IMG/VR virus record: IMGVR_UViG_3300009034_002625
Coordinates: 1-64,000 of that record
Length of the DNA stretch: 64,000 bases
Reading direction: 5' to 3' (one strand)
Origin: a virus
Numbering within the stretch: position 1 is the stretch's first letter; every line of letters starts with the position of its first letter. Position numbers and translations under genes: made by a program. Below are positions 4,095 to 32,500 of this stretch, piece by piece. The notes beneath the pieces are model-generated. The model was given only the letters and a program-made list of their open reading frames with translations. It was not told the DNA's origin and made no database searches.

Positions 4095-4445
4095 TTATGG
4101 TAATAAACCTCTTGCCTCAAGACGTTCTATTGCTATTTTTTCTATTTCTTCTTTTATTAGTTTTTGATGTTGTTTCTCCATTTTTAATTTTTGTGCTTTT
4201 TTCTTATCAACCCAAATCCCTTGTCCTTTTCTACCTGTCCAAGCATCTCTATCTTCTCTTGATTGAGGTAACTCAGATAAATCAATATCATCATAGGGTC
4301 TTCCTTCCAAATCTCCGTGCATACACTTTGTAAATACCCTCTCCAACCAGTCTGTTTCCATTTCATCAGCACGCCTTGAATTTAGAGCAGGATAGATTAT
4401 TGACACTCCATTATCTGCTCTGTAAACAACCCTTACTTTATTCAT
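4095..4445 (-). CDS. Putative tail fibre assembly/chaperone protein
   Basis: Directly follows the fibre gene; VYRADNGVSIIYPA...ELPQSREDRDAW pattern typical of fibre-adjacent proteins. Confidence 0.55.
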   Translation of the reverse strand: MNKVRVVYRADNGVSIIYPALNSRRADEMETDWLERVFTKCMHGDLEGRPYDDIDLSELPQSREDRDAWTGRKGQGIWVDKKKAQKLKMEKQHQKLIKEEIEKIAIERLEARGLLP

Positions 4446-10400: not shown

Positions 10401-10687
10401 TCCCAAAAAAATCGCCAATCTTTTAATTGAATTTTAATTTTGGGTGGATCAGCCCCTTCTTCTTTTTCCCAATGAATAACAACTAGGTTTTCAATCATTT
10501 TTTGATCCCAGTCGTTTCTAAAAGTCAGCCAATGACCATAGGGATTTTTTTCTAATTCTTTTTCAAGGCTTCCATCTTCATCAACCAAAGTACAGGTTCC
10601 TGAAGAGGGAGAAGTTCCAAGATCAAGGGTCATTTCAGCACTATTAACTGGCCATCTATCAAACCAAGCTTGAATATCACCTTCCAT
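4445..10687 (-). CDS. Large tail tip/tail fibre protein (2080 aa)
   Basis: Downstream of tape measure; charged N-terminal hub-like half, PGQIWFDTT motif, G/T/D-rich beta-strand C-terminal half, terminal WINFDGTG...DSYNV...GEYTVTW fibre-tip domain. Confidence 0.8.
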   Translation of the reverse strand: MEGDIQAWFDRWPVNSAEMTLDLGTSPSSGTCTLVDEDGSLEKELEKNPYGHWLTFRNDWDQKMIENLVVIHWEKEEGADPPKIKIQLKDWRFFWDRINITGEFNIPSDNLLNQPALLDGAVRFIDQKDGWPWYGMDVLHLAKEIISELLGMKGASWIPDALVRAERTGKQRPGNKWPKYNDPIRSAGKDGIKPYMPLSIKWFRTPLNQAINDILEPINHEIALKANGKIEIVKKGNPIAKSKFSNIEKAYQNFLKNKTGGINKAPLPYWIHVVGNNFLIQEPPVSWIPVCEDLENKIRPLFEKDQHKDAKKWKLQSIEKIWKISREDITKGVNKEHFWKNLIGEEKSKKMEKCVFRWFCHPEYSPIIKGYTYHNLKKTPAILKRIDSAKYPSLGAKFKDIYIKAWQIVKKPDKHTYEEKEIEEPKDWTMDYDLLVLKIKGKNWSTGLEEDTAKLLKSQFEAKEIGPEVTFAFEWREFEYKTPDKKLSVMNPFGFMKRVPNAKLGSSPSGKGLETELLVRVPDLVPLLIDKIWINEERLEFLSKEIAERVAESLLNQQKWSYEYATYLDVDPDGWITSVSWNVSYGTRININLEFSADRLSPSMKRKLKEDQWEQMQWFIRMREKEEYSVRPKGRLGKYSYSPGEAQSVADLALSSWNHTGLIGIHDTTGLPKGNLFYIDGQPRGGSIPDHLDSVQFCQVTNKDFVFGNHTIDRVGPIWCEEPPETPKKGLKNTLLVRTWFTPNEDILDPERTRVWEKSLPLGHWYNWVNIDTDLIYTGLKEGKLKCTGQIKLKPKKTSSPDNPVITPTSYFLQRKGRPDCSVYSSVIEGPWFCTKSYPWNSSWHTYAGGKVGHPSYGTSSAEYADSLPFYKEAVTNLYQGKTYPAEKANCPKSKYSPLGTKDLRAEQTLNYKPSRDNYAGDWSCFKNWLDLPEFAYMIYPFPEDFFADKDGWRRLEATAYEGLYYCELARKHDAFNCFYPLVQEAYDLTEPLPPILHKSLTKYEDLSLTDHLAYLTMKLTEVVIHHNTFVRLMSREHTRMGEHFYPDRDSPVSPYPGQIWFDTTNFKIFRRNWSNTSWQEFSPEVQAFDDVYYTSVSRSKLNVDIDSGTLVWRLKNYDMTVQWWNGASYVDIAKFDGTTGFLDGHIAVDYITGATYKTLQHFIDTAQSAGHIGTITVTDNGDGTVNIGAGTGFIRSSDSNVANNLFFDWAGDASYTPAGDPDLNYIYINYNAGAPIIQDTTDPTTINFNDEFPIARVYKDGNTICIVQGGQPAGNIAHMTNRRFAAADIAKRTAGSILSETGARNIAVTAGSWYAGLNFLLTAAFDSSGADRFSYWYNDHTGWVEVATQSQVDNTQWNDYGQNPGLVALTANRYGVHWVYQGWSGDVGIVYGQGDYKLAEALGVQPPSTLPDRLTKLATLIGKIIIQKNSATFYSTESAFVTVFVGTGVSDHGDLAGLQGGTVAEYYHLTSAQHTELTDWIDNNVTLYSDGGFKIEPTATGSQTIVAITSQNPLDAGSLWAGIIIDATALDPVTGANCAIAGCYVDFSTLVSVDKDAILSGFWVAPSATDTTTGFGLFLEEMTENKIQTGFSYTDPGSTALSATATYRGVNIDWSGTTRNGGAPVLEGISCKLPASYTDFGTSWAGYFSGDGRSVTICDTTYALDVADGRVRILNLTVDTTTTYRGFENQHTKTAGITDHDDHMYGILNNITMNHASTEVGDVYGIHNTMQLDKSVSVGDAVNTKEAAGIRSIARLLSGTVHDSLYGTSVQVDGDGGTVSVNVCGSYVDVDLESAMASIAGDVYGQYIKVDADKDPTGSVYMLYLDEATNVDYGIYQAGTGADNYLKGQLGLGAETTPDATIHSALAAADNIHLFDCYSDTDTQKSLFLFRKSHHDTYGTMIDTIDGEWFGVIGFKGVDTNQAWAYGAYILAEQDGNAGADYVPTKITIKTSNTGLVDTTAMTIGKDGVITAPTFKGEGAINGWINFDGTGVIAERDSYNVAGIADNAVGEYTVTWDIDFANDDYAVGGAGYTDQATYNAVVIVRTLNTEWVEFQTLNVAGPAKVDSAQIFIIAIGDSA

Positions 10688-18239: not shown

Positions 18240-19293
18240 CTACGGTTATTTCGTAACCATATGGTGAATTGGGTAAAAGTTTATCATAAAGATCTCTAAC
18301 AAAACTCAAGAATAAACCACCATCATCTGAATCAGTTGTAAGGTAAAAAGCATCATCAAGAACAAACAAAGGAACTAAAACATAACGAGTCGCAGCAATA
18401 GCATAAGCAGTAGTTCCATCAATTACTACAGATCCTGAAATTCCAGATGCATTTTCTTGGGTAATTGTGCAAGTTACGGGAGCTCCATCATAATAAGCAG
18501 TTCCGCTTGCAACAAGTTCGTCTCCATCCGAATCTGAATAAAGTTTAATAGTCAAAACATGAGTATAGCCAACTCCATTGGCAACAACTGTTAAAGTATA
18601 ATAAAGTTTTCCTTCATCTGAATTATCATTATCATAACCAGTCAAAGACCAAGATGAAAGTTGATTATTGGTATCACCATATTCAAGAATTGTAGTTCCT
18701 TCTATTATCTTAAAAGAAATTCCACCTTCTTCCCATTCGTAATCTTCATCCGTTACAGGCTGAACAGAAGGTGAAGCAATCGCAGAACACCTTACTTCCC
18801 AAAGTTCAGATCCTTGGGTTCCTACATCTGAACAGATAACTTCAATATAATTATCTTCTCTAGCCATTTGAGTAGTAAGATAATTTATTAGACTTCCCGC
18901 ATTGGAATTAGTCAAACTGCTTGTTGGGCCGCTAGAAGAAATCGTATTAGCTTTAACCTTATCGCTTGCGGAATTCATCTCTCTTATCAAATCATCTATT
19001 ACCTGAACTACAGTCTCATCAAGTCCTGAATTTAGTTGTGTTTTTACAAAATTGCTGAAAAATGAATCACAATCGGTCTTGATCAAAGTATCTTTCCAGG
19101 TAAGATAGGTACTTTGCTTTGCATCAAAATCATCCAGTGCTGTCTCAAGAGATTCCATATCTGATTTATTCGTATTGAATAAATTAACAAATGCTTTCCT
19201 TATTGATTCATAATAGTCATCATATTCAACCATTGTATTTCTAAACATTACATATTTCCCCATGCGACGATAAATTAAATCACGATCGTACAT
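18220..19293 (-). CDS. Putative virion structural protein
   Basis: 357-aa acidic, S/T/G-rich ORF in the head-neck region. Confidence 0.5.
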   Translation of the reverse strand: MYDRDLIYRRMGKYVMFRNTMVEYDDYYESIRKAFVNLFNTNKSDMESLETALDDFDAKQSTYLTWKDTLIKTDCDSFFSNFVKTQLNSGLDETVVQVIDDLIREMNSASDKVKANTISSSGPTSSLTNSNAGSLINYLTTQMAREDNYIEVICSDVGTQGSELWEVRCSAIASPSVQPVTDEDYEWEEGGISFKIIEGTTILEYGDTNNQLSSWSLTGYDNDNSDEGKLYYTLTVVANGVGYTHVLTIKLYSDSDGDELVASGTAYYDGAPVTCTITQENASGISGSVVIDGTTAYAIAATRYVLVPLFVLDDAFYLTTDSDDGGLFLSFVRDLYDKLLPNSPYGYEITVDESFAE

Positions 19294-20099
19294 TTCTTCC
19301 TCCTTCTTATTTTTCCAGCATAATTATCAGTTTTTTTATGACACACTTGGCAAAGAGTTTGCCCATTTGAAATTTCAAATCTTAAAGCAGGATATTTTGC
19401 AAAAGATAAAACATGATGAGCATTTAAATAATTTCCTCTTTTCCTACATTTTTGACAAATATAATTATCTCTTTCAAAAACTGCTTTTCTCCAATCTTTA
19501 TATTCTTTTGAATAATATCCTGTTTTATAACCTTTGCTTTTTCCACCTTTCCAATTATAATGTTTCGGCCCTTTTATAGATTGACCAATTTTATCTCTGG
19601 TCTTTTGAGAACGAGGAGGTCTTCCAAGTGAACCACAAGATTGAGAACAATATTTTCGGGAAACAGAAGGTATAACTTCAAAAGCTTTTCCGCAATATAA
19701 ACAAACTAATACCTTTCTTTTATAAGGAGCATGTCTTTTGCGTTTCATTCCTTTTCGAGTCAGTAATCCTTTTTCTATGGATTCTTTAGATAGTTTTCGA
19801 CCTTTGAGTTTTATGCTAATTTTCAATTTGGATTCCAAAGTATGATGTCTTCCCGAAAAAGTTGGAGGGGGAGTTTGTTTCAGCCGAATAATTCTTAATT
19901 TATTTTTAGTTTCTTCAGAAACTTTTTTTCCCATTAAAGCTTTAGATATTTTCTTTTTGTGATCCAAGGAAAATATTCTTCCCTTACCACTCAAGCTCAT
20001 TTTTTTCTTAGTTTCTTCCGAATGAAATTTTCCCATGTGTGATTTTCTCATTTTCTCTATAGATTCTTCTGAATGTTTAAAACCTAACCTATTAGGCAT
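19275..20099 (-). CDS. NUMOD3-repeat HNH homing endonuclease
   Basis: Repeated HSEETKKKMS-type motifs; WRKAVFERDNYICQKC...AHH...NGQTLCQVCH. Confidence 0.9.
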   Translation of the reverse strand: MPNRLGFKHSEESIEKMRKSHMGKFHSEETKKKMSLSGKGRIFSLDHKKKISKALMGKKVSEETKNKLRIIRLKQTPPPTFSGRHHTLESKLKISIKLKGRKLSKESIEKGLLTRKGMKRKRHAPYKRKVLVCLYCGKAFEVIPSVSRKYCSQSCGSLGRPPRSQKTRDKIGQSIKGPKHYNWKGGKSKGYKTGYYSKEYKDWRKAVFERDNYICQKCRKRGNYLNAHHVLSFAKYPALRFEISNGQTLCQVCHKKTDNYAGKIRRRKKCTIVI

Positions 20100-20108
20100 C
20101 TTCCCCCC

Positions 20109-21560
20109 TTAACTTGCTATGTGAATATTATAACCAGAAAATTTTTCCTTAATTGTCTGAGTCATATATAAAAAGGATAATTTATCCTTTAAACTTTTAC
20201 CCTCAAAAGTTAAATTGACTTTAGAAGATTTTGACATCTCATTAAATATTTTGTGTCTAGTTGGTTTAGGAAGAAACTTTTTAATCTTTTCGGCAAGAAC
20301 ATCCAAGCTGAATTTTTCTAATTTAAAATTGCGAATTTTCTTTTTTCCCGATACAGCAATCTGGATAGATTCCTGTATCTCTTTTAAGTTTTTTTGATTT
20401 TTCACATATATCAAATCATCTCCATATTCCCGTTTTAGTTGTTTCAATTCTAAAGCTACAAATGGCTTATTGAATGCTAAAAACTCTGCGGGAACCATAC
20501 CAAAGCCCTCATGCCTAGAAAGAACAATCCCAGCTTTTGATCTTTGAATTATTTGAAATTTTGTTTTATCGTCTACCCGTTCATAATAATTGAATTTGTG
20601 AAGATTATTTCCATTTCCAAAAACCTCTCTGACTTTCGAAGTTCCAGTTCCAATATAATTAAGATCCAATGGATCTTTCATTTCAATAATTGCTTTTCCA
20701 ATTTCTTTCCATCCTTTAAAATCTGCAATTCTTCCTATATAAGTAATTTCATTTTCTATTTTCTGCTTTAGAACACTTTTCATAACTTCTAAATTTAATG
20801 GCGGTTCACAAATGTGAATAGGAATTCTATTAAATCTCTTATCCCATTCATAAAATTTTTCTTTAGTCATTTTTGAGCTACAAAGTATTGCATCTGCTTG
20901 GAGATATTCTTCTCGATGATCTACAATTTTATCTTTCCATTCAGGAACTTCTTCTGTCAACCATTTGTCTGTTTCATAACAAAATAGCCAAATCGGAATC
21001 TGAAAAAACTCACCATATTCAATAGCTCTTTTTAAGCATTGCGGAGGAGTCCCGATTACCAAATCAAAACCTGCATACTTAATAGCATAACGGTTATTAA
21101 ATTCAAATGAAATGCCTATTTCTCTTTTCCAATCATTCATAAAAGGAGATTCTTTCGGAGTACAAACATGAATATGCGCTCCAGTTTTAGCTAAAGCTTG
21201 GACTAAAGCATAATCAGAATATCTTGCTCCAGAATATCCAGGATCATCAGCAGTCATGAATAAAATTTTAAATTTACGTTCAGGATGAAAAGCTCTCCGG
21301 ATATCCTTTCTGGAACTAAACGCTCTAGACTCTCCAACTTCAGGTGCTTTCTCAAACCACTTTTCAAAAACATCTGCCCCCACTGAAACTTTTTGAAAAG
21401 GTGATCCCGAGGAAAGAAACCAATTTTTCATCAAACTGGAAATAGGAAAAGGTTCTCCCTTGAGAACAGTAATTTCTCGACCCCAGCGAGAATTTAAAGT
21501 ATTTTCAATTCTTTTCGCTTTTTTGGGTCCGGTATAAACTAACCAAATAACATCTTCCAT
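20109..21560 (-). CDS. GT4-family (GT-B fold) glycosyltransferase
   Basis: ITYIGRIADFKG and SRHEGFGMVPAEFLA (EX7E) motifs. Confidence 0.85.
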   Translation of the reverse strand: MEDVIWLVYTGPKKAKRIENTLNSRWGREITVLKGEPFPISSLMKNWFLSSGSPFQKVSVGADVFEKWFEKAPEVGESRAFSSRKDIRRAFHPERKFKILFMTADDPGYSGARYSDYALVQALAKTGAHIHVCTPKESPFMNDWKREIGISFEFNNRYAIKYAGFDLVIGTPPQCLKRAIEYGEFFQIPIWLFCYETDKWLTEEVPEWKDKIVDHREEYLQADAILCSSKMTKEKFYEWDKRFNRIPIHICEPPLNLEVMKSVLKQKIENEITYIGRIADFKGWKEIGKAIIEMKDPLDLNYIGTGTSKVREVFGNGNNLHKFNYYERVDDKTKFQIIQRSKAGIVLSRHEGFGMVPAEFLAFNKPFVALELKQLKREYGDDLIYVKNQKNLKEIQESIQIAVSGKKKIRNFKLEKFSLDVLAEKIKKFLPKPTRHKIFNEMSKSSKVNLTFEGKSLKDKLSFLYMTQTIKEKFSGYNIHIAS

Positions 21561-21615: not shown

Positions 21616-22623
21616 CTAGCTAAGATCTGTCGCTGCTGTATAAAGAGCATAGAGTCTATCTGTGTTGAGAACCTTGACTTGATCATACCAACGAAGGGCA
21701 ACACCGAAGTATCTTCCATAATCATCTTTTTCTTCAGCCCAAATGAACTGAATAGCATTTTCATGGAAGAAACCAATTGCTCTTCCAAGAGCTCTTGGAC
21801 CCATCATGAAACCCTTATAAATCGTGGTAGAATATCCATTGGCAGCTGATACGATCAACGGAGACCTATAAATAAGGCATCCATCCCAATAAGCATCAAA
21901 GCCTCTAAACGCAGGACCTATGGCATTTTGCTCAGACATGGTTGAACCAGCCTGCGCGGCAGCCGTCTTATAGTCAGTGTGAGTTACCAGATCATAAATC
22001 TGGTAAGGATGTAAGAAGCAAACATAATATCCATCGGCTTTCGCTCTTGGATTTGTGGGATCTCCTACATCGAATTTAGGAACTTTCGCTCCCTCCATCT
22101 TGTATTTCAACTTGGAAATGGTTCCAGGGGTTATTTTATCAGTAGCATCAATATCTCCAGATCCCGTAGCATCTCCGCCCCACAAAATATTTGCGGCAAG
22201 ACATCCCGACACCAATGCCGTAAAGGCATCCGTTTCCTTTTTCTCCGCAGCTTCTTCGCCTAGAGTATAAACAGCCTCTTTTCTCAGTTCTATCAAGGTT
22301 TTAGCTCTTGCGCTAGCTGTGAATGCAACTGCTCCACCTTTCTCTGTAGGCTCGTAACTAACCAAGTCAAATTGCATCTTCTTCTCATTGCCTTTTAGAG
22401 AAGTAGTTTCAGTCAAATCCCAACTGATGTTAAGCTTTTGTCTCTTTGGAATGTTAAGCTTATCACCTTCTTTTTCAATGAGCTCTCTCTTGATAACCTC
22501 AAATTTGGCCATAAATCTCTTAGCCCAGTTGACATCCTCAACCTGCTTGGTCCAAATTTCTGGCAGGGTATTATCTATCGTGGTTGAAGATGTTACATTA
22601 GTATAACTTGGATTATCAGCCAT
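21616..22623 (-). CDS. Major capsid protein (HK97 fold, N4-gp56-like family)
   Basis: 335 aa after protease/scaffold; PEIWTKQV, GDKLNIP, LKGNE, YVCFLHPYQIYDL motifs; GGAGG SD. Confidence 0.85.
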   Translation of the reverse strand: MADNPSYTNVTSSTTIDNTLPEIWTKQVEDVNWAKRFMAKFEVIKRELIEKEGDKLNIPKRQKLNISWDLTETTSLKGNEKKMQFDLVSYEPTEKGGAVAFTASARAKTLIELRKEAVYTLGEEAAEKKETDAFTALVSGCLAANILWGGDATGSGDIDATDKITPGTISKLKYKMEGAKVPKFDVGDPTNPRAKADGYYVCFLHPYQIYDLVTHTDYKTAAAQAGSTMSEQNAIGPAFRGFDAYWDGCLIYRSPLIVSAANGYSTTIYKGFMMGPRALGRAIGFFHENAIQFIWAEEKDDYGRYFGVALRWYDQVKVLNTDRLYALYTAATDLS

Positions 22624-22680: not shown

Positions 22681-24042
22681 TTATTTTTTTGTCTCGTCAA
22701 GATAATAATCGGTTCCAACCAATTTGATCTTTTCTGCATTCATCAGCTCGGTCATTTTTCCCGGAGGCATTTTGGCTATATCATCTGCGGTTAATTTTTT
22801 GCCTGTCGGAGTTTCTTTCTTGGTAGCTTGCTTTCCATCTCCTGTCAAAATCGAGGGCATTTCTTCAAAAACGGAAAGAAGTTCCAATGTTTCCTTGCTA
22901 AAATCAGCTTCAAGATCAGTTCTGTCTCCTTCAAATTTCTCGACCATTGACAAAACTTTGGCTTTCTGAGCTGGAGGAAGTTTACCTGAACCAACCAAAC
23001 TTTCCACTTTCTCGTTGATCATCTTGGTAGACTGGGCTTTTCGAATTTTTTCCAGAGTCTCTATCTTTTTAACCCCAGTCTTAACAGCCTCTTCGAGCTT
23101 AACCAAAGACTCATGAGTTTGTTTTCCAAGAGCTATTTCTCTCTTCTTGAGCTCAGCCTCTTTCTTTTCAAGAGCTTTGGCCTTTTCAACTAGTTCTTTA
23201 ACTTCTTCCATCGTATCTTCCTCCTTAAGATATTCGAAATTCACAAGTTTTTTTACACCTACAGAATCTGCTTCAAGTTGCTGAAATCCTTCTAACTTTG
23301 TGATTTGTGGATCAAGCGTTAAAGCGACATGATCGATAATCTCACCCTCATCTTCTCCAGATTCAGAATTTTTAAAGTGAGGATCAATGCTTATACTTGT
23401 GTCCTTAATCGATTTATTGCTGACCAACTCTTCAATTTGATCAGTAGTAAAACCAATTAAGCCCCACAAAGAATTATTGTCCCGAATCTCAAGATCTTCA
23501 ACCCAACCAGTATTCAAGCGTGGATCTTTCGAATGACGGAGAGGAACTGGAACCTTTTTGAGCTCTTTTTTAAAAGCATCAATCCATTTCTGCAATCTTT
23601 CAACAGTCACTTCCAATTTCTTTTCCGTACCCGGAATAATCCAAGATCCTACCCGAATCAACTCTTTCCAGAATTTCTTACCTTCTTTATTCTCAAAATT
23701 CAAATCCTCAATGTTTGAGCTAAGAAGAAGGCTTTCTTCCGCGGTTGGTTCGAATTCCTCAAGAAACTTCGAATAAGCAGCGCCAGCAGTCTTAATAATG
23801 TAGCCCTTGATTCTTCCAAGTAGCAATTTTAGGTTCTTGGGGGCTTTCTCAATTTCCTTATCAATGAACTGAATTACGGCCTTAAACTTTCCACCATAAG
23901 GTGCCTTTGCCATTTTATCTTTATCCTTTTCTGGATATTCATCTTTATCCTTTTTATAAGGCTCATAATCCTTTTTCTTCTTATCTTTCAAATCTTTATC
24001 CCAATTTCCATAAAAATCGTCACTCATGATATAACCTCCCAT
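22681..24042 (-). CDS. Prohead protease/scaffold (Mu gpI-like); probable start MSDD at 24027
   Basis: ELIRVGSW...VPLRH...GWVEDLE...TSISI...HVALTLDP protease core followed by coiled-coil scaffold. Confidence 0.8.
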   Translation of the reverse strand: MGGYIMSDDFYGNWDKDLKDKKKKDYEPYKKDKDEYPEKDKDKMAKAPYGGKFKAVIQFIDKEIEKAPKNLKLLLGRIKGYIIKTAGAAYSKFLEEFEPTAEESLLLSSNIEDLNFENKEGKKFWKELIRVGSWIIPGTEKKLEVTVERLQKWIDAFKKELKKVPVPLRHSKDPRLNTGWVEDLEIRDNNSLWGLIGFTTDQIEELVSNKSIKDTSISIDPHFKNSESGEDEGEIIDHVALTLDPQITKLEGFQQLEADSVGVKKLVNFEYLKEEDTMEEVKELVEKAKALEKKEAELKKREIALGKQTHESLVKLEEAVKTGVKKIETLEKIRKAQSTKMINEKVESLVGSGKLPPAQKAKVLSMVEKFEGDRTDLEADFSKETLELLSVFEEMPSILTGDGKQATKKETPTGKKLTADDIAKMPPGKMTELMNAEKIKLVGTDYYLDETKK

Positions 24043-24524
24043 ATTTCAATTCTCTGCTCTTCCAGCATCACTTCCTGGCCTTGAGCAGGATTGATAACAA
24101 CAGAGATATTCCTAAACTCGATGTCTTTGGCACTCCTTTTCTTACCTTTTGTATTGACTTCTGTCAAACGCATGGCTGGAGAAACACCAAAAGACATAAA
24201 ACCCATCAGCCTTTTCTGATCCTCTAATTTCTTGATAAGAACGGAATCAACAAAACACAATTCTGCTCTTATTCCTTTTACACCCTGATCCCAAAAAGGC
24301 TGTCTATAAAAACCTACCCAGGTTTCTATTCCTTCTTTGTGATCAGTAAAAATGGAAAACTTTCCTCCCTCAGCAGGTTTGCCCTCATCCTTCTTCAAAT
24401 CGGCGAGGGCTTTTTTAATTTCCTCTGCGGGATAGAAAAGATCATTCCATGTTCCTTCTTTTAAGATAATTCTATTCTTAAAAATAAGAATATTATCTTT
24501 TTTTTCAAAACAATACAAATCCAT
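24024..24524 (-). CDS. Second prohead-protease-like protein
   Basis: ILKEGTWNDLFYPAEE...FTDH...WVG...GVSP...ISVVINPA; His and Ser placed as in phage maturation proteases. Confidence 0.6.
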   Translation of the reverse strand: MDLYCFEKKDNILIFKNRIILKEGTWNDLFYPAEEIKKALADLKKDEGKPAEGGKFSIFTDHKEGIETWVGFYRQPFWDQGVKGIRAELCFVDSVLIKKLEDQKRLMGFMSFGVSPAMRLTEVNTKGKKRSAKDIEFRNISVVINPAQGQEVMLEEQRIEIWEVIS

Positions 24525-27500
24525 TTAGTCCCTTTCTCCTCCAGGGCCAGCCAATCTTTGAAAAACCCAAATGTCGGCTTTGGGGGTTTCTCTTTTGAAA
24601 GTATATAGTCCCTTTAAATGCTTTCCCTTGAATTCCGCCGACATGAAATTTGGATTGTCCTCCAAAATATTCAGCGAACCAGAATCTTCAATATCTACAT
24701 TCGCCTCTATTTTCTTGTTAGGATTTTCCCCATGCGCCGGTGGAAGCTTGCCTTTAAAAGTCATCCAAGCTTTCACTGGAGCATTGGGAGGACCAATTGT
24801 CGTCTTAACTTTTTTTGCAGCAACCGCTTCTTCAAAAAGAGGTGATTCTTTCAACTTGAAAGTATCAAGCCATTCTTTGCCCCTATCTATTCTAGTAGAA
24901 TATTGTTCAACCGGCATTGCTCTCACAACTTTTGCACCAAGCCACCATATTTTCTGAAGAATGAATTTTGCTTTAGCTAATTCCAATTCTTTTACTTCAA
25001 TCTTTCTATGTTTCAAATAACCTTCATCGATAAGCCAATTAAAAGCTAAATCCATTTTTTTCAAAGCCTCATTTTTGGATACAGCTTTAGTCCACCATTT
25101 TATTTCATCTGGAATGATAGCTTCAAATTCAGGAGATAATCCCGATGTTCCCCGAGGTGGAACATAGTCTCTTTTCTTCCTTCCTTCTGGAGACATCAGA
25201 TAGGGAATTTCATTTTTAGTCTTAGAGAAAAACCAAAAAAGTTCCTTCTTCCCAACTCTTTCCCATTCTTTTCTCCTACCTATTAAACGTGTAATAAATC
25301 TTCCTTTATATTTACTACCTCTCAAAAAATACTCTCTAAAATATGCCTTTCTGGTTCCGGGCCAAGAAAGACCCCAGTCTTCTCCCCAGAATACTCCCTT
25401 TTTAGTAGCAGTTGCACCTACTTGACCAGGTTCAACAATATTTTTAATTTCCTTAATCCATACCAAGGGTTGAGTTCCTTTTTCTGTAGCATAGAGTCTG
25501 GTTCCAACCGGCATATCTGGTCTCATTTTTTTAATTTTGGGATCATTCGCATATTTTTCAGCTTTTTCAAAAGTATCAACATCTTCTTTTATTGCCCCCT
25601 TAATCTGATTAGCAATAGTCCAGCCTTCAAGATGATCATTTATTTTAATCCTAAGATCGCTGTGCAAACTCCGTCCCCTGAAATGATCAGATAGTTGGAA
25701 GAATCCTTTTGGCAATGTTTTCGGATCCATCTTTAAAATTTGTTCTCTAGTTTTACCAGTCCATTTTTTAAACTTGCTTTCCACTTCTGGAACTTTTGGA
25801 GGTTCTTTCTCAAGATTGATTTCTTCTTTAAAAGAAAGTTCATAAAAAGAAGAATGATAAGATAATCTTCCGCTTATCGCTTCTTCCCCAGCTAGCTCAG
25901 CTTCTTCTTCAAAAAAAAGTTTTTTCTTTTCAAAAACTTCTTTGTATCGTTTTGGGAAAGGCTTCTCGGCTATTTCTCCACCAGTTTCTTTAACAAGTTT
26001 CAAAGCAAACTCCAAACTATCAGGTTTAGTTTTATCTTCACGTTTCTCAATTGGTCGAGCAGCCCACATATTCAACCAAATCTCATTGGTTTTGGGATCC
26101 GTATATTTATTTATATTTGAGAAGGCCACTCTTAATATATCTCCTACCTTACATTTGATTCTAGTGTTATAAGTCCTTCCTGAAGGAATTAACTTATCTC
26201 CCTTTCTCACAACCGTGAGATAATTCCATGCTGCTAACTTTCCAGCTTTAGGACCTGCAACCTGATGGATATCAATAACTTCTACATCTAAGTCAGCTTC
26301 TTTTTTGCCTTTAACCCATTTAGTTGACATTCCACCTAAAGGATAAGTTCCTTCTGACTGCTTAACCATCATTCCTTCTGAATTCTTGATCCCCCCAAAA
26401 TGTTCCCAAGCCTTTTCTACTTGTCCTTCATTTTTGCAAAGCCTCCATTCCATAACTTGGAGTTTACTTAAATTTAAAGGCTTGATTGCTTTATCTAAAA
26501 CATGTTTTCTTTCCATTTCAGTTTCTTTATGCAAATCTCTATCATCGATCATTAGAATGGTAAAGATATTAGCAAAGAAAGGCTTGTCATCTACAGCTCC
26601 TTTAGAATGAGCATATCCTGCAACATCGCTTCTACCCATATGTTTGCCTTTCAAGAATCCCTCAGACCATCCTTCTATTTCACTATCAACGATAAAATCT
26701 TGTTTAACCTTTTTGGCTTGAGCAACGATAGTTGGAAGTCTATGAGTCCAATCTCCACCATCTTCAGATTGGATTTTTACTCTATCACCCTTTTTACTGA
26801 TAATAGCACGTGCACCGTCCGCTTTCTTATCAATGATAAACTCATAATCTTCAGGCTTGAATTTGCCTTTCAAAAAATTCAAGATATTCTTAATCGAATA
26901 AACTTCTTGTTTTCTATATCCTGCAATTCCTTTAAGTGGAAGAAAATATCTAAAATATTCTATCTTATCTTCTCGTTTTGACTTTTCAGCTTGACTGCTA
27001 ACTTCTTCTGATTTAATTCTCTGGAAATTCCAACCATCTTTAGATAGACCTACCAGTTTATCTTCGCATCTTTCAAATTTAATATTATAGAGAGGAATAT
27101 AACTAGTAAATAATCTGGAATCAGAAACAAGATGGATGTCTTCCATCAAATCTGTAGGTAATTGGGACATAAGTCTAAATTCTTCTTCCGGCAGTAAGTC
27201 TCTCCTGCAAATCAAATCAACATCATTCCCGTGTCCTGAAACTGCCATTGAACCAGCAAGACAAACAAGTTCTTTTCCTATATAGAAATCTTTAAATAAA
27301 TCCAAAACTCCCTGAAGTTTATATTTTCGCTTCTGGCCATAAAGCTCATATTTCATAGAAATCTTATCAAGCAGGTCTATGATTCTGTGTTCCATATTCC
27401 TTCTATCTCTCATTTCATCAACAACAAAAGCATGAGCATGAATCAAGGGTTCTGAAATTTTTGGGTAATTTTCCCAGAAGATATCATGGAGTTCTGAATG

Positions 27501-28112
27501 AAGAATAACTAATTCTTTATTCGAAAGACTGTCCAGATATTCAGGCGTAACCTCTTTAATATCAAACTTTCTCTCAAAATTCAAATAATGAATATCGTCA
27601 ACAAAAGCCTGAACTTCCTTTTTTTGCTTGATATCTTTTGGCCTATCAAAAGGAATAACTTCCCTAACTTTCCACAAATAAAACTCTTTAACATTTGGCC
27701 AAAAAGCTATTCTTTCATCATCTGTAATTTTATGAACATCTCTTAGTTCATCGAATTCTTTTCGAGAGATCTTTTCATAATCCTGAAAACGAGCTAGGCC
27801 ATAGTCTTTCTTGCCACTCACAATATGATAAAAGCCGCGTAGGTCAAATTTCTTTGATTTAACCACGGCCGCTTTATTGCCCGATATGAGCATCTGAGCA
27901 TGCGGAGAGACTAAAGTTAGGCCCTTCGTAGATTCCTTCGCCAGGACTTCTCGAAAGACCTCTCGAGAAATTCTCTTCATTTTGTTAGGATGGAAAACAG
28001 TTGATTCTCGATCAATTAACTCCCTAACAATTTTTCCCAAAAAAGTCATAATTTGTTCTTTTGTAAAATCTTTTATTTCCATGTTCCTTGTTTCCTTTTG
28101 GCCGAAGCACAA
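24525..28112 (-). CDS. Multidomain protein: ASCH + nucleotidyltransferase + ATP-dependent DNA ligase + two LigD-phosphoesterase-like domains
   Basis: Ligase motifs KKADGAR, IVDSEI, EGMMVK, KWVKGK plus OB-like region; AGS...NDVDL; DHFRGRSLHSDLRIK; SPHAQMLISGNK. Confidence 0.8.
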   Translation of the reverse strand: MCFGQKETRNMEIKDFTKEQIMTFLGKIVRELIDRESTVFHPNKMKRISREVFREVLAKESTKGLTLVSPHAQMLISGNKAAVVKSKKFDLRGFYHIVSGKKDYGLARFQDYEKISRKEFDELRDVHKITDDERIAFWPNVKEFYLWKVREVIPFDRPKDIKQKKEVQAFVDDIHYLNFERKFDIKEVTPEYLDSLSNKELVILHSELHDIFWENYPKISEPLIHAHAFVVDEMRDRRNMEHRIIDLLDKISMKYELYGQKRKYKLQGVLDLFKDFYIGKELVCLAGSMAVSGHGNDVDLICRRDLLPEEEFRLMSQLPTDLMEDIHLVSDSRLFTSYIPLYNIKFERCEDKLVGLSKDGWNFQRIKSEEVSSQAEKSKREDKIEYFRYFLPLKGIAGYRKQEVYSIKNILNFLKGKFKPEDYEFIIDKKADGARAIISKKGDRVKIQSEDGGDWTHRLPTIVAQAKKVKQDFIVDSEIEGWSEGFLKGKHMGRSDVAGYAHSKGAVDDKPFFANIFTILMIDDRDLHKETEMERKHVLDKAIKPLNLSKLQVMEWRLCKNEGQVEKAWEHFGGIKNSEGMMVKQSEGTYPLGGMSTKWVKGKKEADLDVEVIDIHQVAGPKAGKLAAWNYLTVVRKGDKLIPSGRTYNTRIKCKVGDILRVAFSNINKYTDPKTNEIWLNMWAARPIEKREDKTKPDSLEFALKLVKETGGEIAEKPFPKRYKEVFEKKKLFFEEEAELAGEEAISGRLSYHSSFYELSFKEEINLEKEPPKVPEVESKFKKWTGKTREQILKMDPKTLPKGFFQLSDHFRGRSLHSDLRIKINDHLEGWTIANQIKGAIKEDVDTFEKAEKYANDPKIKKMRPDMPVGTRLYATEKGTQPLVWIKEIKNIVEPGQVGATATKKGVFWGEDWGLSWPGTRKAYFREYFLRGSKYKGRFITRLIGRRKEWERVGKKELFWFFSKTKNEIPYLMSPEGRKKRDYVPPRGTSGLSPEFEAIIPDEIKWWTKAVSKNEALKKMDLAFNWLIDEGYLKHRKIEVKELELAKAKFILQKIWWLGAKVVRAMPVEQYSTRIDRGKEWLDTFKLKESPLFEEAVAAKKVKTTIGPPNAPVKAWMTFKGKLPPAHGENPNKKIEANVDIEDSGSLNILEDNPNFMSAEFKGKHLKGLYTFKRETPKADIWVFQRLAGPGGERD

Positions 28113-29047
28113 GCAAGTAGAAATCGCATATCATCCCTTAATTGTATCTCAGTTCTACTATCGGCTTCATATTTTTCAGTATCAAGTTCTTTGTTATTTT
28201 CAATGGGCTCATTTATACAAACCCATAGTTGGTTGTCAATATCTTTCCCGCCTAAAATATTTCTGCTGGTCTGCAATTGAACTCGTTCGACAGATTTAAA
28301 AACTATCTCAAGATTTTTTCTGATATTTCCTTCGCAATGCATAAGAAAGATTTTGCAGTTCTTGCTTAGTTTATTAACTATCTGAGGAATATCATTTAAA
28401 TTGAAAGGCATACTAGCTATCTCTTTTTGTTCCAAAATGCAATCCAAAAATTTTTGAGGTTCATATTTAGATGAATCGTATGGCGGGTCAAAATAAACTA
28501 CATCTACCTTTGGAAAATTCATTCTTTGAATATCTTCCCTTAAAACCTTAGCCTCTTTTGAAAAATTTATTCTTCGATAGAAAGATTGTTTAATTTTCTC
28601 TTCTAAAAATTCCTCAAATCGCTTAGAAAAGTTATTTTCTCTAATTGGCATATAGGTAAAATAATGAGTAAAGGTATCCGCCAACACTCCCAAGCCAATA
28701 TGTTTTTTCTTCATTTGTTGTGCATGAACTGCCAATCCATCAATTCGTTTTCTTAATTCTTCGGGTTCTTTTCTCATCTTTGCTTTAGTAAACCATCCTT
28801 CAACTGGCTTAGCTTTTAAGAAAGCATCAGTTTCTTCCTTTGTTAGTTTGTCTTTTGAAAGCAAATAACGAGAAAACCAATAAGGAACTCCATTAACATC
28901 GTTAGCTAAAACTTCCATTCCTCGTCTTAAGCAAGATAAAAGAACCGTGCTTCTACCACAACAAGGATCAAAGATGGACTTCGCCCCAACTGGAATTCTC
29001 TCCAGAATATCGTCTCGAACTAAATGTCTACTTTGCCACCAAATCAC
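28073..29047 (-). CDS. DNA adenine methyltransferase (alpha class, Dam/D12-like)
   Basis: N-terminal SAM-binding IFDPCCGRS...LANDVN and catalytic VVYFDPPY. Confidence 0.8.
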   Translation of the reverse strand: MIWWQSRHLVRDDILERIPVGAKSIFDPCCGRSTVLLSCLRRGMEVLANDVNGVPYWFSRYLLSKDKLTKEETDAFLKAKPVEGWFTKAKMRKEPEELRKRIDGLAVHAQQMKKKHIGLGVLADTFTHYFTYMPIRENNFSKRFEEFLEEKIKQSFYRRINFSKEAKVLREDIQRMNFPKVDVVYFDPPYDSSKYEPQKFLDCILEQKEIASMPFNLNDIPQIVNKLSKNCKIFLMHCEGNIRKNLEIVFKSVERVQLQTSRNILGGKDIDNQLWVCINEPIENNKELDTEKYEADSRTEIQLRDDMRFLLACASAKRKQGTWK

Positions 29048-30554
29048 CAGCTTTCTCCTTACTTCTTTTTATTCCTAAATCATAGATTAAATTCAATAAA
29101 TCAAAATGTCCCAGTTTAATTTCCTTCTCTTTCGAGAATTGTTTTAATTGAATAAATTCTTTTGCTTTTCCTTTCAAGAAATCATGATCCTCATCTGGCA
29201 TTTCAACGTATCCCTCAAAGCTATATTCTTCTTTTCCTTTCTCAACGCCTTGATTGTAAACTTTTCTCAAAGCAATAAATGCGGATCTTTCAGGATTCTT
29301 TTCCTCTTTATAATCAAATGAAATCTTCCCGCCCTCTGAAGTAAGGGGAACTCTAAATCTTTTGGCTAATTCAATAACATCAGGTTTAATATCTTGAGGC
29401 TCATTATCAAAAGTTTTCAAGAAAACATCTTTATTAATATTTCTTACATAGGGATCAAGGGGTTCAAACTCAAAATCGATTTTGGGAAGACTTCCTGAAA
29501 AATTTGCTCGGATCAAAGGATCCACCAGATAAGGAAGAATATAGCCTTTAGCCATATCATTTGCCAAACTTTCAACTGCTCGAGAAAGCCATTCACTATG
29601 AATATTAGCTTTTGCATAAGATCCTCCACCACCAAAAGCTACTTCTTCAAAAACAAAGATCGCTCTCGCTTTTAGCTGATCCATCTTGTCATGATCTGCA
29701 TTAAAATCATAGACCTTACCTGCTTTTTCTTCAAGCAGTTCTATGTTCCAACCTGCTTCTGAAGGCATAGAAACCCCACCCGAAGAACGAACTGATTCTA
29801 CTATTTCCTGAATTAGATCTAAATTATCTACCATGATAGGAGAATTCTCAGAATCAAGACCAATCTGAGATTCACCTATCGGAGCTTTTCCCAGAACTGT
29901 AGCTATAGCCAGCTTCTCGGTATAAAGCCCATGATTCTCAAAAATATATTTGTCCAAAAACCAATAACGATAAGCAGATCTAATCCTGGATCTTCCGTAA
30001 AGATTCCCAAATCTTTTATCATGAGTATAAACAAAACATTTTTCTTTGGGAATAGTAACCTCTTCAGTATTGCCCCAGGGCAATTGCTGAATCAATCCAT
30101 CAAAGGAACCATCTTCGGTAACTTTGATGGTTAGATATTGGGGATCCATATCCAAGGGAATCTTCAACCACCATTGACCATCCCTTGCTTCAAATCTTTT
30201 TTCGTTACCTGAATAGCCAAATTCAAGAGCTGTTGATAAATTTCTCATCAAATGTTTCCAGATTCTTTCTAAATTCTCTGTGGCGAATTTTTTAATTTCT
30301 TGAGATTTACAAACTAATTGCCATCTCATATTCTGGATAGGTATTTTAAAAATAAGCAAAGGAAATAAGATTCCCCCATCATCCAACATTTCCTTGTATG
30401 TTGAAATTTGAATAGTATCGGGATTATAAGTTTCACCCTCTTTGATAAAAGAAAATTGATGACGACCGAGTTGTGCCGAGGTTAGAAGTTTATATAAAGA
30501 TTTTTTCTTATTTTTTTTATACTTCGTAACTTTAAATTTTGCAGTTTTAGCCAT
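29028..30554 (-). CDS. Portal protein (DUF935/Mu gp29-like)
   Basis: Follows terminase; ALEFGYSGNEK and GNLYGRSRIRSAYRYW motifs. Confidence 0.85.
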   Translation of the reverse strand: MAKTAKFKVTKYKKNKKKSLYKLLTSAQLGRHQFSFIKEGETYNPDTIQISTYKEMLDDGGILFPLLIFKIPIQNMRWQLVCKSQEIKKFATENLERIWKHLMRNLSTALEFGYSGNEKRFEARDGQWWLKIPLDMDPQYLTIKVTEDGSFDGLIQQLPWGNTEEVTIPKEKCFVYTHDKRFGNLYGRSRIRSAYRYWFLDKYIFENHGLYTEKLAIATVLGKAPIGESQIGLDSENSPIMVDNLDLIQEIVESVRSSGGVSMPSEAGWNIELLEEKAGKVYDFNADHDKMDQLKARAIFVFEEVAFGGGGSYAKANIHSEWLSRAVESLANDMAKGYILPYLVDPLIRANFSGSLPKIDFEFEPLDPYVRNINKDVFLKTFDNEPQDIKPDVIELAKRFRVPLTSEGGKISFDYKEEKNPERSAFIALRKVYNQGVEKGKEEYSFEGYVEMPDEDHDFLKGKAKEFIQLKQFSKEKEIKLGHFDLLNLIYDLGIKRSKEKAGDLVAK

Positions 30555-32091
30555 GCTTTATTTTCCCAAATTTTAAATTTGTTTCAATTCTAGGCCTAAA
30601 GAAAGAAGCTCTTGATAAATGCTTTTTCTTTTTTTCTTTCATTTTTCTCGCTTGCTGACTTAATATTTGTCCTCCCGATCTATATCGAAATCCTTTCGTT
30701 CCAGTTTTCGCGGCTTCTCTTGCAAAGAAACATGCCATTACAAGATCGTCTTCTTTCATATTAGGCCAGTTCTTAAGCTGTTTTATCCATTCACACCAAA
30801 TACATTTGCAGACCACAGAATGCTTTCTCCCCATAAAAATTTTCCATTTACCTTGCTCGAAATCCAAAGCCATTCCATCAATGCCTGCCAAAGATCTTTT
30901 CTGCAATTGCGTAAAGTATGCTTTTAAAGGAAGATGAGTATCCTTTGCTTCAGGTAAAGTTTTTATCCATTCCAGAAAGGATTTTTGATAAGCATTAGTT
31001 TCCACCATTATTTTTTTTGCCCAATGGATTTTTTGAAGTTGGACTACCCGTCTTGCTGTAGCAATAGAACCAAGTCTCTTTTTGCCCATTTCAACAGGAT
31101 AAAGATTTCCCTCGGGATCTCTTGCAAGGATAAAAAATGCAGAGAAAGAAGCATCGGAACGTTTTCCTATCGCAAGATCAACTCCCATAAATCTTGGCCA
31201 GTCGGAAGAAATATCAGAAGGCGATCTGGTATCAAAAACACAACTATCAACATCCTTTTCTTGGAAAGTGTGATCTTCATCGGAGACTGGTTTCAATTCA
31301 TAATTTCTTTCCCAATCTGACTTCTTCATTGATTTTCTTTTATTCTGCAATTTTGGCGCATTCCATTTATTTGGCCAGATAGGTTTAAAATCTACAATGG
31401 GTCGGATAAGCTTCTCATACTCAGGATCATTTCTTAATTCACTGGTTAAATCATCTTCATGCCAAGTAGTAGCAATATAAATTAATTTACCTCCATCTGC
31501 TAGCAAAGGAATCCAAGTTGAATAAAAAGCCCGCTTAATTGTTTCTCTCATCTTGGGAAATTGAATTGCATTCCTGAAATCTACAGGATCATCAAAAATA
31601 AGGAGGTCTGCTTGACCTCCCGTAGATGAACTGAGAATCGACCAGGCTTCAACACTTGAATCGGAGCTAACACCTGGTCTGTCAACTGTAAATTTATGTT
31701 TCGTCCAATCAAGTTCGCCGGGCATAAGATCGGGAAAAACTTCATGAAGATCGATAGAGTTTTCAATATAATATTTAATAAATCTAATTTTTGCTTTTGC
31801 CATTTCGTCAGTATTCGAAACGACTTTAATTCTCATGCGGGTATCTTTTCCAAGAGAATGAATTGCATAAGATTTGACAATAGTAGTTTTCCCATGCTTT
31901 CTAGGAATAAGAAGAAGGCCTTTTTCTTTAATTGAATCAAAAAAATCGATAATTTCATTATGAATTTCATCCAAGACTAAAGGATTTCCAGTTTTATCAT
32001 CCTTGATAACTAACTCGGTAAAATCCTTTGCATTAGTTTGAGCTCTTTCGTATTTTTCTAGTTCTTTAATTTCTTCTTCAACTGTTAGCAT
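30547..32091 (-). CDS. terL: Terminase large subunit (probable start MLTVEE at 32091)
   Basis: Walker A IPRKHGKTT, Walker B LLIFDDP, nuclease MGVDLA and DDLVMA. Confidence 0.92.
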   Translation of the reverse strand: MLTVEEEIKELEKYERAQTNAKDFTELVIKDDKTGNPLVLDEIHNEIIDFFDSIKEKGLLLIPRKHGKTTIVKSYAIHSLGKDTRMRIKVVSNTDEMAKAKIRFIKYYIENSIDLHEVFPDLMPGELDWTKHKFTVDRPGVSSDSSVEAWSILSSSTGGQADLLIFDDPVDFRNAIQFPKMRETIKRAFYSTWIPLLADGGKLIYIATTWHEDDLTSELRNDPEYEKLIRPIVDFKPIWPNKWNAPKLQNKRKSMKKSDWERNYELKPVSDEDHTFQEKDVDSCVFDTRSPSDISSDWPRFMGVDLAIGKRSDASFSAFFILARDPEGNLYPVEMGKKRLGSIATARRVVQLQKIHWAKKIMVETNAYQKSFLEWIKTLPEAKDTHLPLKAYFTQLQKRSLAGIDGMALDFEQGKWKIFMGRKHSVVCKCIWCEWIKQLKNWPNMKEDDLVMACFFAREAAKTGTKGFRYRSGGQILSQQARKMKEKKKKHLSRASFFRPRIETNLKFGKIKHG

Positions 32092-32500
32092 CCTGCTTCT
32101 CCTTCTGTTCTCGTAGCTTCCCCAACCTATCAAGCCTAGAAGATCTCGGGCTATCTCCAGAGCCACCATTTTCACTAGAAATTCTAGCAAGAACTTCCAG
32201 CTTGAATTTTTGCAAATCAATCAAACTTGTTATATTACTTGCCGTAAGCTTCTCTTGTTTCTTAACCCTATCAATAAGTTCATTACAGCTTTTCAAAATT
32301 AATTTTTTTTCGATATCGGGGATTATTTCAGTTGGCCCAAAAGAATCAACAAATTGCTTTGCTTTAATTTTCTTTTTAACTCTGTAAATTTGTTGATCAC
32401 CCAATCCTAATTCGAGTGCAATTCTCTGCCAAGAATAGCCTAGGCCCCGCATTTCGTTAGCAAGAGAAACATTTTGGTTAAATTGTTTTACTGTGTTCAT
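32078..32500 (-). CDS. terS: Putative terminase small subunit (HTH)
   Basis: GYSWQRIALELG HTH; overlaps the terL start. Confidence 0.65.
   Translation of the reverse strand: MNTVKQFNQNVSLANEMRGLGYSWQRIALELGLGDQQIYRVKKKIKAKQFVDSFGPTEIIPDIEKKLILKSCNELIDRVKKQEKLTASNITSLIDLQKFKLEVLARISSENGGSGDSPRSSRLDRLGKLREQKEKQDANS

Follow-up and report, generated by a model that had tools for sequence, protein, structure and literature searches.

The stretch of DNA analysed here (the window) comprises the first 64 kb of IMGVR_UViG_3300009034_002625, a linear record of 73,022 bp in IMG/VR that comes from an uncultivated tailed virus and has a CheckV completeness of 64%. On its minus strand, the open reading frame (ORF) 24525..28112 encodes the target of this study, a large protein that combines a predicted ATP-dependent DNA ligase with two folds related to the 3'-phosphoesterase (PE) of bacterial LigD. 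Counted from a TTG codon, the ORF specifies 1195 aa, the length given in the initial annotation. The ORF stands, but its start is probably a different one: an ATG at 28082 is preceded by aaaggaaacaaggaac, a purine-rich, Shine-Dalgarno-like stretch, and translation from this codon yields a 1185-aa protein that matches database protein P0002 exactly, over its full length. For these reasons we took the ATG as the likelier start, and the coding sequence is probably 24525-28082 on the minus strand. Its parts, with the evidence that delimits them in brackets, are as follows.

24525..28082, minus strand: whole coding sequence, 1185 aa plus stop
27933..28082, minus strand: N-terminal two-helix segment, residues 1-50 (AlphaFold2 helices 8-25 and 37-50)
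27573..27932, minus strand: ASCH / PUA-like domain, residues ~51-170 (Foldseek, VIA)
27327..27572, minus strand: helical hairpin segment, residues ~171-252 (AlphaFold2 helices 188-205, 211-227 and 237-246)
26967..27326, minus strand: alpha/beta domain with a Pol-beta-type nucleotidyltransferase (NTase) motif, residues ~253-372 (motif)
26283..26966, minus strand: ligase adenylation domain, residues ~373-600 (Pfam PF01068)
25923..26282, minus strand: ligase OB domain with a motif VI-like RP-x-x-x-R-E-D-K, residues ~601-720 (family profile)
25716..25922, minus strand: charged linker, residues ~721-789, modelled with low confidence at its start (predicted local distance difference test score, pLDDT, 36 and 75; model residues 1-20)
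25203..25715, minus strand: PE1, LigD-type 3'-phosphoesterase-like, residues ~790-960 (conserved active-site set)
24978..25202, minus strand: helical connector, residues ~961-1035 (AlphaFold2 helices, model 221-226, 240-245 and 259-275)
24528..24977, minus strand: PE2, PE-fold beta barrel without catalytic His/Asp/Arg, residues ~1036-1185 (VIA, profile)

The order ASCH, helical segment, NTase motif, ligase with OB region, PE and degenerate PE had been proposed in the initial annotation and is confirmed. The motif coordinates given there are also right: G277-D289 corresponds to 27218-27254, K420 to 26825 and H800-R811 to 25652-25685.

In the ligase core, residues 412-593 belong, according to Pfam, to DNA_ligase_A_M (PF01068), with an E-value of 2.6e-23 and 83.2 bits against a cut-off of 26.2 (87.4 bits when searched on the genome). 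Residues K420, D422, G423, E468, E569, G570, K574 and K591 are invariant or at least 90% conserved in 34 family sequences; we take the ligase motifs to be I at K420-x-D-G, III at E468, IV at E569-G570...K574 and V at K589/K591. The family profile extends through the OB domain and motif VI of the archaeal ligases 9dfa and 4eq5 (E about 1e-16), with the family's '...PRvielredk' opposite 'FPRYVALREDK' of 9dfa. Pfam DNA_ligase_A_C had no match in the target protein at E<=1, and the NCBIfam ligase models that match it do so far below their full-length cut-offs. Judged by these alignments, the target carries a complete predicted ATP-dependent DNA ligase, consisting of an adenylation domain, an OB domain and motif VI.

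The two PE folds lie in residues 745-1185, which were modelled with AlphaFold2 to a mean pLDDT of 90. In a Foldseek search of the PDB with this C-terminal model, the top seven matches were LigD PE chains from six entries (E 4.7e-6 to 1.2e-4), and the next was unrelated. Within PE1, H800, R802, H807, D809, R811, K868, P872, W875, T891, G896, K912, F915, E917, R928 and R932 are invariant in 19 of 19 sequences. A profile of PE1 alone matched 3p43, the archaeal enzyme MbaPE, best among PDB entries (E 0.0018), and was aligned on the active-site motif. The account of MbaPE by Smith et al. (PMC3082917) gives His36, His42 and Asp44 as Mn ligands and Arg46 and His78 as phosphate-binding residues, together with Tyr82. 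In the alignment, H800, H807, D809 and R811 of PE1 correspond to His36, His42, Asp44 and Arg46. A second 3p43 segment puts Gln871 at His78 and Trp875 at Tyr82, a mapping that is tentative because this segment is weak (5.5 bits). Position 871 is Q in 14, E in 4 and H in 1 of the 19 sequences, and Trp875 is invariant. The strand order of PE1 in the AlphaFold2 model matches that of a PE; VIA aligned PDB chains to PE2, not to PE1. PE1 thus appears, from sequence, to have a LigD-type PE fold with a predicted catalytic set.

PE2 was recognized more readily by its structure. In VIA comparisons it matched 3p43 with a Z-score of 16.8 and a root-mean-square deviation of 2.1 over 120 of 124 residues (model 293-435, or residues 1037-1179), followed by 3p4h (Z 15.9) and 3n9b (Z 13.9). 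Altogether six LigD-PE entries scored from 16.8 to 12.4, after which the next chain dropped to 4.4. The family profile also found 3p43 on the PE2 segment in the PDB, with an E-value of 2.3e-9. No conserved catalytic His, Asp or Arg was found in 21 PE2 sequences, where only Gly columns and one Asp (D98) reach at least 90% conservation. In the model, PE2 is a clear barrel, a predicted PE fold without the PE active site. The two copies are homologous according to hhalign (probability 96.1%, E 2.9e-9, 110 columns), and PE1 and PE2 therefore represent a tandem duplication. The helical connector between them is conserved, as an HMM (hidden Markov model) termed 'LNK', in 16 ORFs. The proposal would have been refuted had the PE segments not behaved as predicted; both fold or align as PEs.

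The N-terminal part was modelled separately (residues 1-400, pLDDT 84.7). Its ASCH fold was matched best in VIA by 5guq_A, with a Z-score of 12.5 and a deviation of 2.7 over 115 aa (model residues 52-168), and by nine other ASCH-type entries with Z-scores of 7.4-9.9. Foldseek matched the model to 2dp9 (E 2.9e-7) and ZmASCH (E 1.6e-5), with a probability of 1.00; the phmmer match of the region to 2dp9 was weak (E 0.089). The fold matches include the ac4C amidohydrolase YqfB and TRIP4, the latter with entries bound to double-stranded DNA (dsDNA), and, more distantly, McrB-N and EVE-type modified-base readers. P60 and K70 are invariant in 7/7 sequences. The ASCH motif is GxKxxExR; here it reads G-N-K-A-A-V-V-K, in which G and K70 are conserved and Arg is replaced by Lys. 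The missing Glu, a Val in the target, had been remarked on at the outset. For the helical hairpin that follows, VIA gave generic helical matches only (Z about 6). A HEPN reading of this segment, suggested by an R-x4-H in the window, was rejected: the His is unconserved in the family consensus, and the fold search yielded generic helical matches only.

Residues 253-372 carry a candidate NTase domain. The Pol-beta NTase signature is hG[GS]x(9-13)Dh[DE]h, and in the target's G277-S278...D287-V-D289 the residues G277, D287 and D289 are invariant in 15/15 sequences. The strand-helix pattern predicted in the AlphaFold2 model fits a minimal NTase. At the position of the third carboxylate, the strand 'IHLV' has His in 9/15 and Ser in 4/15 sequences, and nearby D/E residues are not invariant. 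One of the 15 members matches Pfam NTP_transf_2 in this region, weakly (E 0.044). Foldseek matches to MNT antitoxins were likewise weak (7bxo_E, E 0.17; 7aer_A, E 0.37), and the Atlas leads scored 0.82-0.85, all under 0.9. Of the NTase proposed in the initial annotation, the motif is upheld: the region carries a Pol-beta-type signature in sequence, and is a candidate domain without a significant HMM or fold match.

Other end-joining functions were sought in the record. As first noted, Ku is missing: at E<=10 the Pfam Ku model (PF02735) matched nothing in the 73-kb record (64% complete). The AEP polymerase of LigD is missing from the target, since a Pfam scan of the 1185 aa at E<=1 returned the ligase only. 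Neither an AAA_33-type 5'-kinase nor an NAD-dependent ligase was found in the 73-kb record.

The target gene sits in the head module, surrounded by the following genes.

30547-32220, minus strand: TerL (large terminase), head operon
29028..30554, minus strand: portal protein (phrog_113, E 2.8e-35)
28073..29047, minus strand: D12-class N6-adenine DNA methyltransferase (Pfam PF02086, E 3e-10)
24024..24524, minus strand: orf166 (166 aa), downstream of the target
22681..24042, minus strand: Mu-like head maturation protease (phrog_976, E 2.7e-16)
21616-22623, minus strand: major capsid protein (MCP), head operon

The order TerL, portal, D12 methyltransferase, target, orf166, protease, MCP is entirely on the minus strand, with gene ends that overlap or abut; the methyltransferase gene overlaps the target start by 10 nt. 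The placement between portal and protease described earlier is correct, with one intervening gene on each side: the methyltransferase separates the target from the portal, and orf166 separates it from the protease. The protease gene also matches Pfam Mu-like_Pro, under the cut-off (E 6.7e-5), and orf166 has no family match in Pfam, PHROG or NCBIfam. Promoter-like sites in the region are about as frequent as expected by chance (35 vs 32 ± 5.4 in shuffles). Terminator-like sites are somewhat above shuffles (17 vs 9.1 ± 2.8), with none between the operon genes.

Relatives occupy similar positions. We obtained 25 related viral loci (L003 to L027) using a 7-sequence full-length alignment as the query; a single C-terminal protein as the query returned no related locus. 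A same-strand head or packaging gene (TerL, portal, MuF-like, protease or MCP) could be shown individually in the fetched flanks of 17 of the 25, which bears out the predicted linkage of homologues to head genes. These are a MuF-like gene upstream in L004, L006, L007, L009 and L010; in L014 and L019, a protein of 772 or 822 aa that includes a MuF-like domain; a portal upstream in L008, L025 and L026; a terminase upstream in L011, L012 and L027; a protease-capsid fusion downstream in L003; and a capsid protein downstream in L013, L022 and L024. PHROG tallies covered 46 ORFs upstream and 39 downstream, counting the window's own portal and protease, which form the respective first rows. Commonest upstream were portal (phrog_2662, 9; phrog_12, 7), phrog_595 (8) and MuF-like minor head or head morphogenesis proteins (phrog_115, 8; phrog_2468, 5; phrog_3517, 5), terminase also being common; downstream, they were capsid proteins, maturation proteases and virion structural proteins. 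Among the 25 families listed per tally, every functionally annotated one is head, packaging or virion-structural. The position after portal or MuF is maintained across differing portal and capsid families. Few neighbours in the loci were recovered by phmmer or iterated local HMMs when the portal, protease, methyltransferase and other neighbouring genes of the window served as queries.

The family itself is large. An exhaustive representative search returned 1957 proteins at E<=1e-3, 1119 at E<=1e-10 and 391 at E<=1e-30, the last all metagenomic. These numbers put the observation far beyond chance, and the multidomain head-module gene first described is real. Two of the relatives (G002 and G003) are proviral. 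Members reach 2320 aa and many are longer than the target; some consist of the PE1-PE2 part alone. A word-indexed homologue search gave 13 matches, all metagenomic proteins, and BFVD gave one at E<=0.001. Among 50,697 GenBank phage records, the sole multi-domain match is the archaeal virus ANMV-1. In the longest member, P0060 (2320 aa), the ligase is preceded by 14 PEGA repeats, a dockerin and a tail-tube-C-like match, an extension of surface or structural type that is odd for a supposed DNA enzyme.

Domain layouts of the 25 loci were read with HMMs sliced out of the family alignment (HEL, helical segment; NT, NTase-motif domain; LIG, ligase). The target's single-gene layout, ASCH-HEL-NT-LIG-PE1-linker-PE2, occurs among them. 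In 7 loci the layout is split into [ASCH-HEL-NT-LIG] and a second gene that starts with PE1. A third PE-like barrel, seen as two PE2-model matches after PE1, occurs in 8 loci (L013, L015, L016, L017, L021, L022, L023 and L024), of which L017 and L022 lie outside the 7 split loci; the contig end truncates L022 and the downstream gene of L025. Within the family, the PE fold has repeatedly gained extra copies. In L011 (8220-12151) and L012 (6227-10221), the ligase domain is spread over two overlapping ORFs and the NT domain follows the ligase, representing either a permuted architecture or a frameshift.

Family members were scanned with Pfam in two sets, 34 and then 28 further ones (62 in total). 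The domains matched, with counts in the first and second set, were as follows.

DNA ligase: 34/34 and 26/28
D12 methyltransferase: 10/34 and 12/28 (22/62 fused to the module)
Peptidase_S78_2 (XkdF-type prohead protease): 1/34 and 7/28 (8/62)
Lactamase_B_2 (metallo-beta-lactamase fold): 7/34 and 6/28
LAGLIDADG_3: 4/34 and 2/28
Hint_2: 1/34 and 1/28
Intein_splicing: 1/34 and 0/28
LigD_N: 1/34 (3.3e-5) and 1/28 (2.5e-5)
C5 methylase: 0/34 and 2/28
2H phosphoesterase: 0/34 and 2/28
RNA_ligase: 0/34 and 2/28
Tad3 (anti-Thoeris): 1/34 and 0/28
GNAT: 0/34 and 1/28

Because the D12 methyltransferase is fused to the module in 22/62 relatives, the separate methyltransferase and target genes of the window look like a split polyvalent protein. 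The LAGLIDADG_3, Hint_2 and Intein_splicing matches indicate inteins inserted in some members. The N-terminal part of L021, at ~900 aa, is likewise consistent with an intein.

Comparison with characterized systems places the target between two known kinds of protein. Like bacterial LigD, it joins an ATP-dependent ligase and a 3'-PE with the Mn-binding His-His-Asp and Arg in one polypeptide. LigD has an AEP polymerase domain and a Ku partner, whereas the target has neither this domain nor a Ku in its record. In addition, the PE fold of the target is duplicated with an inactive second copy, its PE is C-terminal of the ligase and, unlike LigD, its gene is viral and lies in a head module. In PDB searches the ligase is nearer to the archaeal/Lig1 type (3gde, 7e-6; 9dfa, 1e-16) than to the Mycobacterium LigD ligase (1vs0, E 0.024), and the NCBIfam LigD models are far under their cut-offs (TIGR02776, 45.9 vs 373.2 bits; NF007211, 27.5 vs 774). 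The target pairs a PE with a ligase as LigD does, yet is not a LigD. Its best PE matches are the archaeal MbaPE (3P43) and CkoPE (3P4H), with the scores given above for PE1 (E 0.0018) and PE2 (Z 16.8 and 15.9); PMC3082917 describes these enzymes as minimal eight-stranded barrels. Compared with them, PE1 appears to have Gln/Trp at the phosphate-binding His/Tyr (according to the weak segment) and has the additional invariant Lys868, and PE2 is without all six active-site residues.

The second comparison is with polyvalent proteins, which PMC5512222 (Iyer et al. 2017) and PMC7824862 characterize as multidomain proteins that certain tailed phages inject with their DNA. In size, in multidomain make-up, in standing beside portal or MuF and in variable methylase, nuclease and counter-defence fusions, the target family resembles them. 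Packaged methyltransferases of the DarB type are known from P1. With several unrelated enzymatic domains, variable architectures and a portal/MuF neighbourhood or fusion, the target fits the definition of a polyvalent protein; the window differs in having no MuF according to a local HMM. The main text of PMC5512222 contains no DNA ligase, LigD or ASCH, its three uses of 'ligase' being two RNA ligases and one reference title. The GenBank relative AJP62006.1 of ANMV-1 (866 aa, annotated as an ATP-dependent DNA ligase), covers residues 256-1180 at 28% identity in the layout NT-LIG-PE1-linker-PE2, and is without the ASCH domain and most of the helical segment.

On these grounds we put about even confidence in the reading that the target is a polyvalent protein associated with the capsid, able to heal and seal DNA ends in the absence of Ku. 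Of the LigD-like heal-and-seal interpretation first put forward, the predicted enzymology and the head-module linkage stand; capsid delivery and the biological target we infer, as we do the packaging, the substrates and the 'fill' step. The protein would enter the assembling procapsid together with, or adjacent to, the portal, the MuF-like protein and the protease, and would exit the capsid with the DNA, following the course described for polyvalent proteins in PMC5512222 and PMC7824862. At broken or nicked viral DNA, PE1 would clear 3'-phosphate or 3'-ribonucleotide blocks with Mn2+, like the LigD PE, with the ligase closing the 3'-OH/5'-P junction. PE2 and ASCH would act as non-catalytic DNA-end or DNA-binding modules that stand in for Ku. 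The least supported step is that of the NTase-motif domain, which may extend 3' ends by a nucleotide. The adjacent Dam-like methyltransferase would modify the entering genome, and the two proteins together would shield that genome from host nucleases and mend it, or close its ends or nicks.

A more specific version, possible but on the doubtful side, is that this tailed-virus family carries a self-contained, Ku-independent repair kit in its capsid. Ejected with the genome and a Dam-like methyltransferase, the kit would undo the damage done by host nucleases (restriction, CRISPR, nickases and nucleases that leave 3'-phosphates) while methylation proceeds, a counter-defence by repair. The dead PE barrel would replace Ku as an end-binding or synapsis element, and ASCH might recognize viral DNA by its methylation state.

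Several observations weigh against a capsid-borne repair protein. In PE1, Gln871 would occupy the site of a phosphate-binding His that is essential in archaeal PEs, so that PE1 chemistry may differ, and the Pfam LigD_N match to PE1 is sub-threshold (11.7 bits vs 31.1, E 0.014, at 25596-25676). For the NTase domain, the profile had 0 matches in the PDB, PF01909 and PF18765 had no match on the record, and no NTase was among the 50 VIA matches listed (lowest Z 5.3), which are filled by ASCH and helical matches. With respect to location, 8 of the 25 loci had no head or packaging gene shown individually: the first ORF upstream in L015, L016, L017 and L023 matched no PHROG of head or packaging function, L005 and L021 begin at a contig edge, and L018 and L020 were outside the individual scans. 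A search of the window for MuF-like genes, using a local HMM made from 4 relatives, gave no match. The neighbours of the ANMV-1 homologue are a MutT-like hydrolase and a hypothetical protein of 1168 aa; the annotated terminase lies ~4.4 kb off on the opposite strand. As to the ligase, the target is the only ATP- or NAD-dependent one found in the 73-kb record, and in two relatives rated 100% complete (120 and 156 kb) PF01068 matches nothing but the family protein; on this evidence the target could be the virus's general ligase. Finally, the module of 5/25 loci has no ligase domain, its layout being HEL/NT-PE1-PE2 (L014, L018, L019 and L020) or ASCH-HEL-PE1 (L027), and the record that holds L027 (G004, 62% complete) has no PF01068 match at all.

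Some of this evidence would suit the main rival reading, in which the target is a late-expressed, non-packaged ligase and end-healer that acts on replicated concatemers before packaging and might serve in replication as well; membership of the head operon would do no more than time its expression. The sole-ligase status in the record and in both complete relatives, the failure to find a MuF in the window and the ANMV-1 gene, which does not adjoin recognized head genes, all favour it. We nevertheless judge it rather unlikely. Fusions to an XkdF-type protease (8/62), to DNA methyltransferases and to Tad3 fit cargo better than a replication enzyme, and the maintenance of the place after portal or MuF across differing portal and capsid families also speaks against it. 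Moreover, since 5/25 loci keep the module without a ligase domain, ligation in replication cannot be its conserved role.

Capsid-associated healing and sealing might also be confined to the genome ends. The target would then join or process the linear termini on entry, circularizing the genome as a self-contained counterpart of the way in which the mycobacteriophages Omega and Corndog use host LigD. Phages are reported in PMC12848934, which cites Pitcher 2006, to exploit host LigD for circularization at cos sites; Omega and Corndog resemble the target virus in applying NHEJ-type (non-homologous end-joining) enzymes to their own genome ends, but they bring Ku and borrow the host ligase, whereas the target virus brings a ligase and a PE and no Ku. 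A ligase and end-healing domains delivered with the DNA would fit such a role. However, the complete genome of one relative has direct terminal repeats and needs no end-joining to circularize, no Ku was found in the record, and the ligase-less variants and the methyltransferase, metallo-beta-lactamase and Tad3 fusions point to a wider conflict role, which makes a tool for genome ends only improbable.

Repair of RNA, for example against host anticodon nucleases, with ASCH binding RNA, the NTase rebuilding 3' ends, PE1 trimming 2',3'-cyclic or 3'-phosphates and the ligase joining RNA, is very improbable. ZmASCH acts on RNA, YqfB is among the ASCH fold relatives, and 2/28 long relatives add a 2H phosphoesterase and 2/28 an RNA_ligase domain; the LigD PE also acts on 3'-ribonucleotide ends (PMC3082917). 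Against this, the ligase belongs to a canonical DNA-ligase family with OB and motif VI, the record has no detected AAA_33-type 5'-kinase, DNA methyltransferases are the commonest fused partners, TRIP4 ASCH entries with bound dsDNA are also among the fold matches, and the separate RNA ligase added in some relatives suggests that the target-type ligase does not join RNA.

In the open-access full-text literature we found no description of a head-module ligase-PE protein. The family is large and uncharacterized, and is a variant of polyvalent phage proteins and of the LigD-PE superfamily, both already known kinds. It is common in metagenomes, with 391 representatives at E<=1e-30, and nearly missing from catalogued viruses. 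To the LigD-PE superfamily it adds a tandem active/inactive arrangement, a predicted variant active site (His-His-Asp-Arg plus Lys/Gln/Trp) and a viral home. If the protein travels in the capsid, it would represent a new class of phage counter-defence, one that repairs the cut rather than blocking the cutter. If the reading is true, the target would also be a natural single-chain, Ku-independent heal-and-seal enzyme with possible use as a reagent.

Other features of the window were recorded. After the capsid gene, the structural module contains a group-1 glycosyltransferase (20109-21560, minus strand; Pfam E 1.7e-9) and an HNH endonuclease (19275-20099, minus strand; phrog_8446, E 6.5e-19). 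The tail region holds very large ORFs, 4445-10687 (minus strand, 2080 aa) and 11926-14874 (minus strand, 982 aa). The GC skew changes sign near 40 kb, from negative on the left, with minus-strand genes, to positive on the right, with plus-strand genes, indicating two divergently transcribed arms. In the right arm, the ORFs 54267-56732 (plus strand, 821 aa) and 52339-53514 (plus strand, 391 aa) have no Pfam match at E<=0.01. In 8 related loci, a homologue of orf166 makes up the first ~150 aa of a longer ORF (327-730 aa) that lies downstream of the module: L013:8994-10871, L015:21314-23506, L016:22927-24346, L017:13732-14919, L021:9482-11644, L022:1693-2676, L023:16345-18471 and L024:13860-15542. 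These ORFs precede the capsid gene wherever a capsid gene was seen, and orf166 is a conserved companion of the module.

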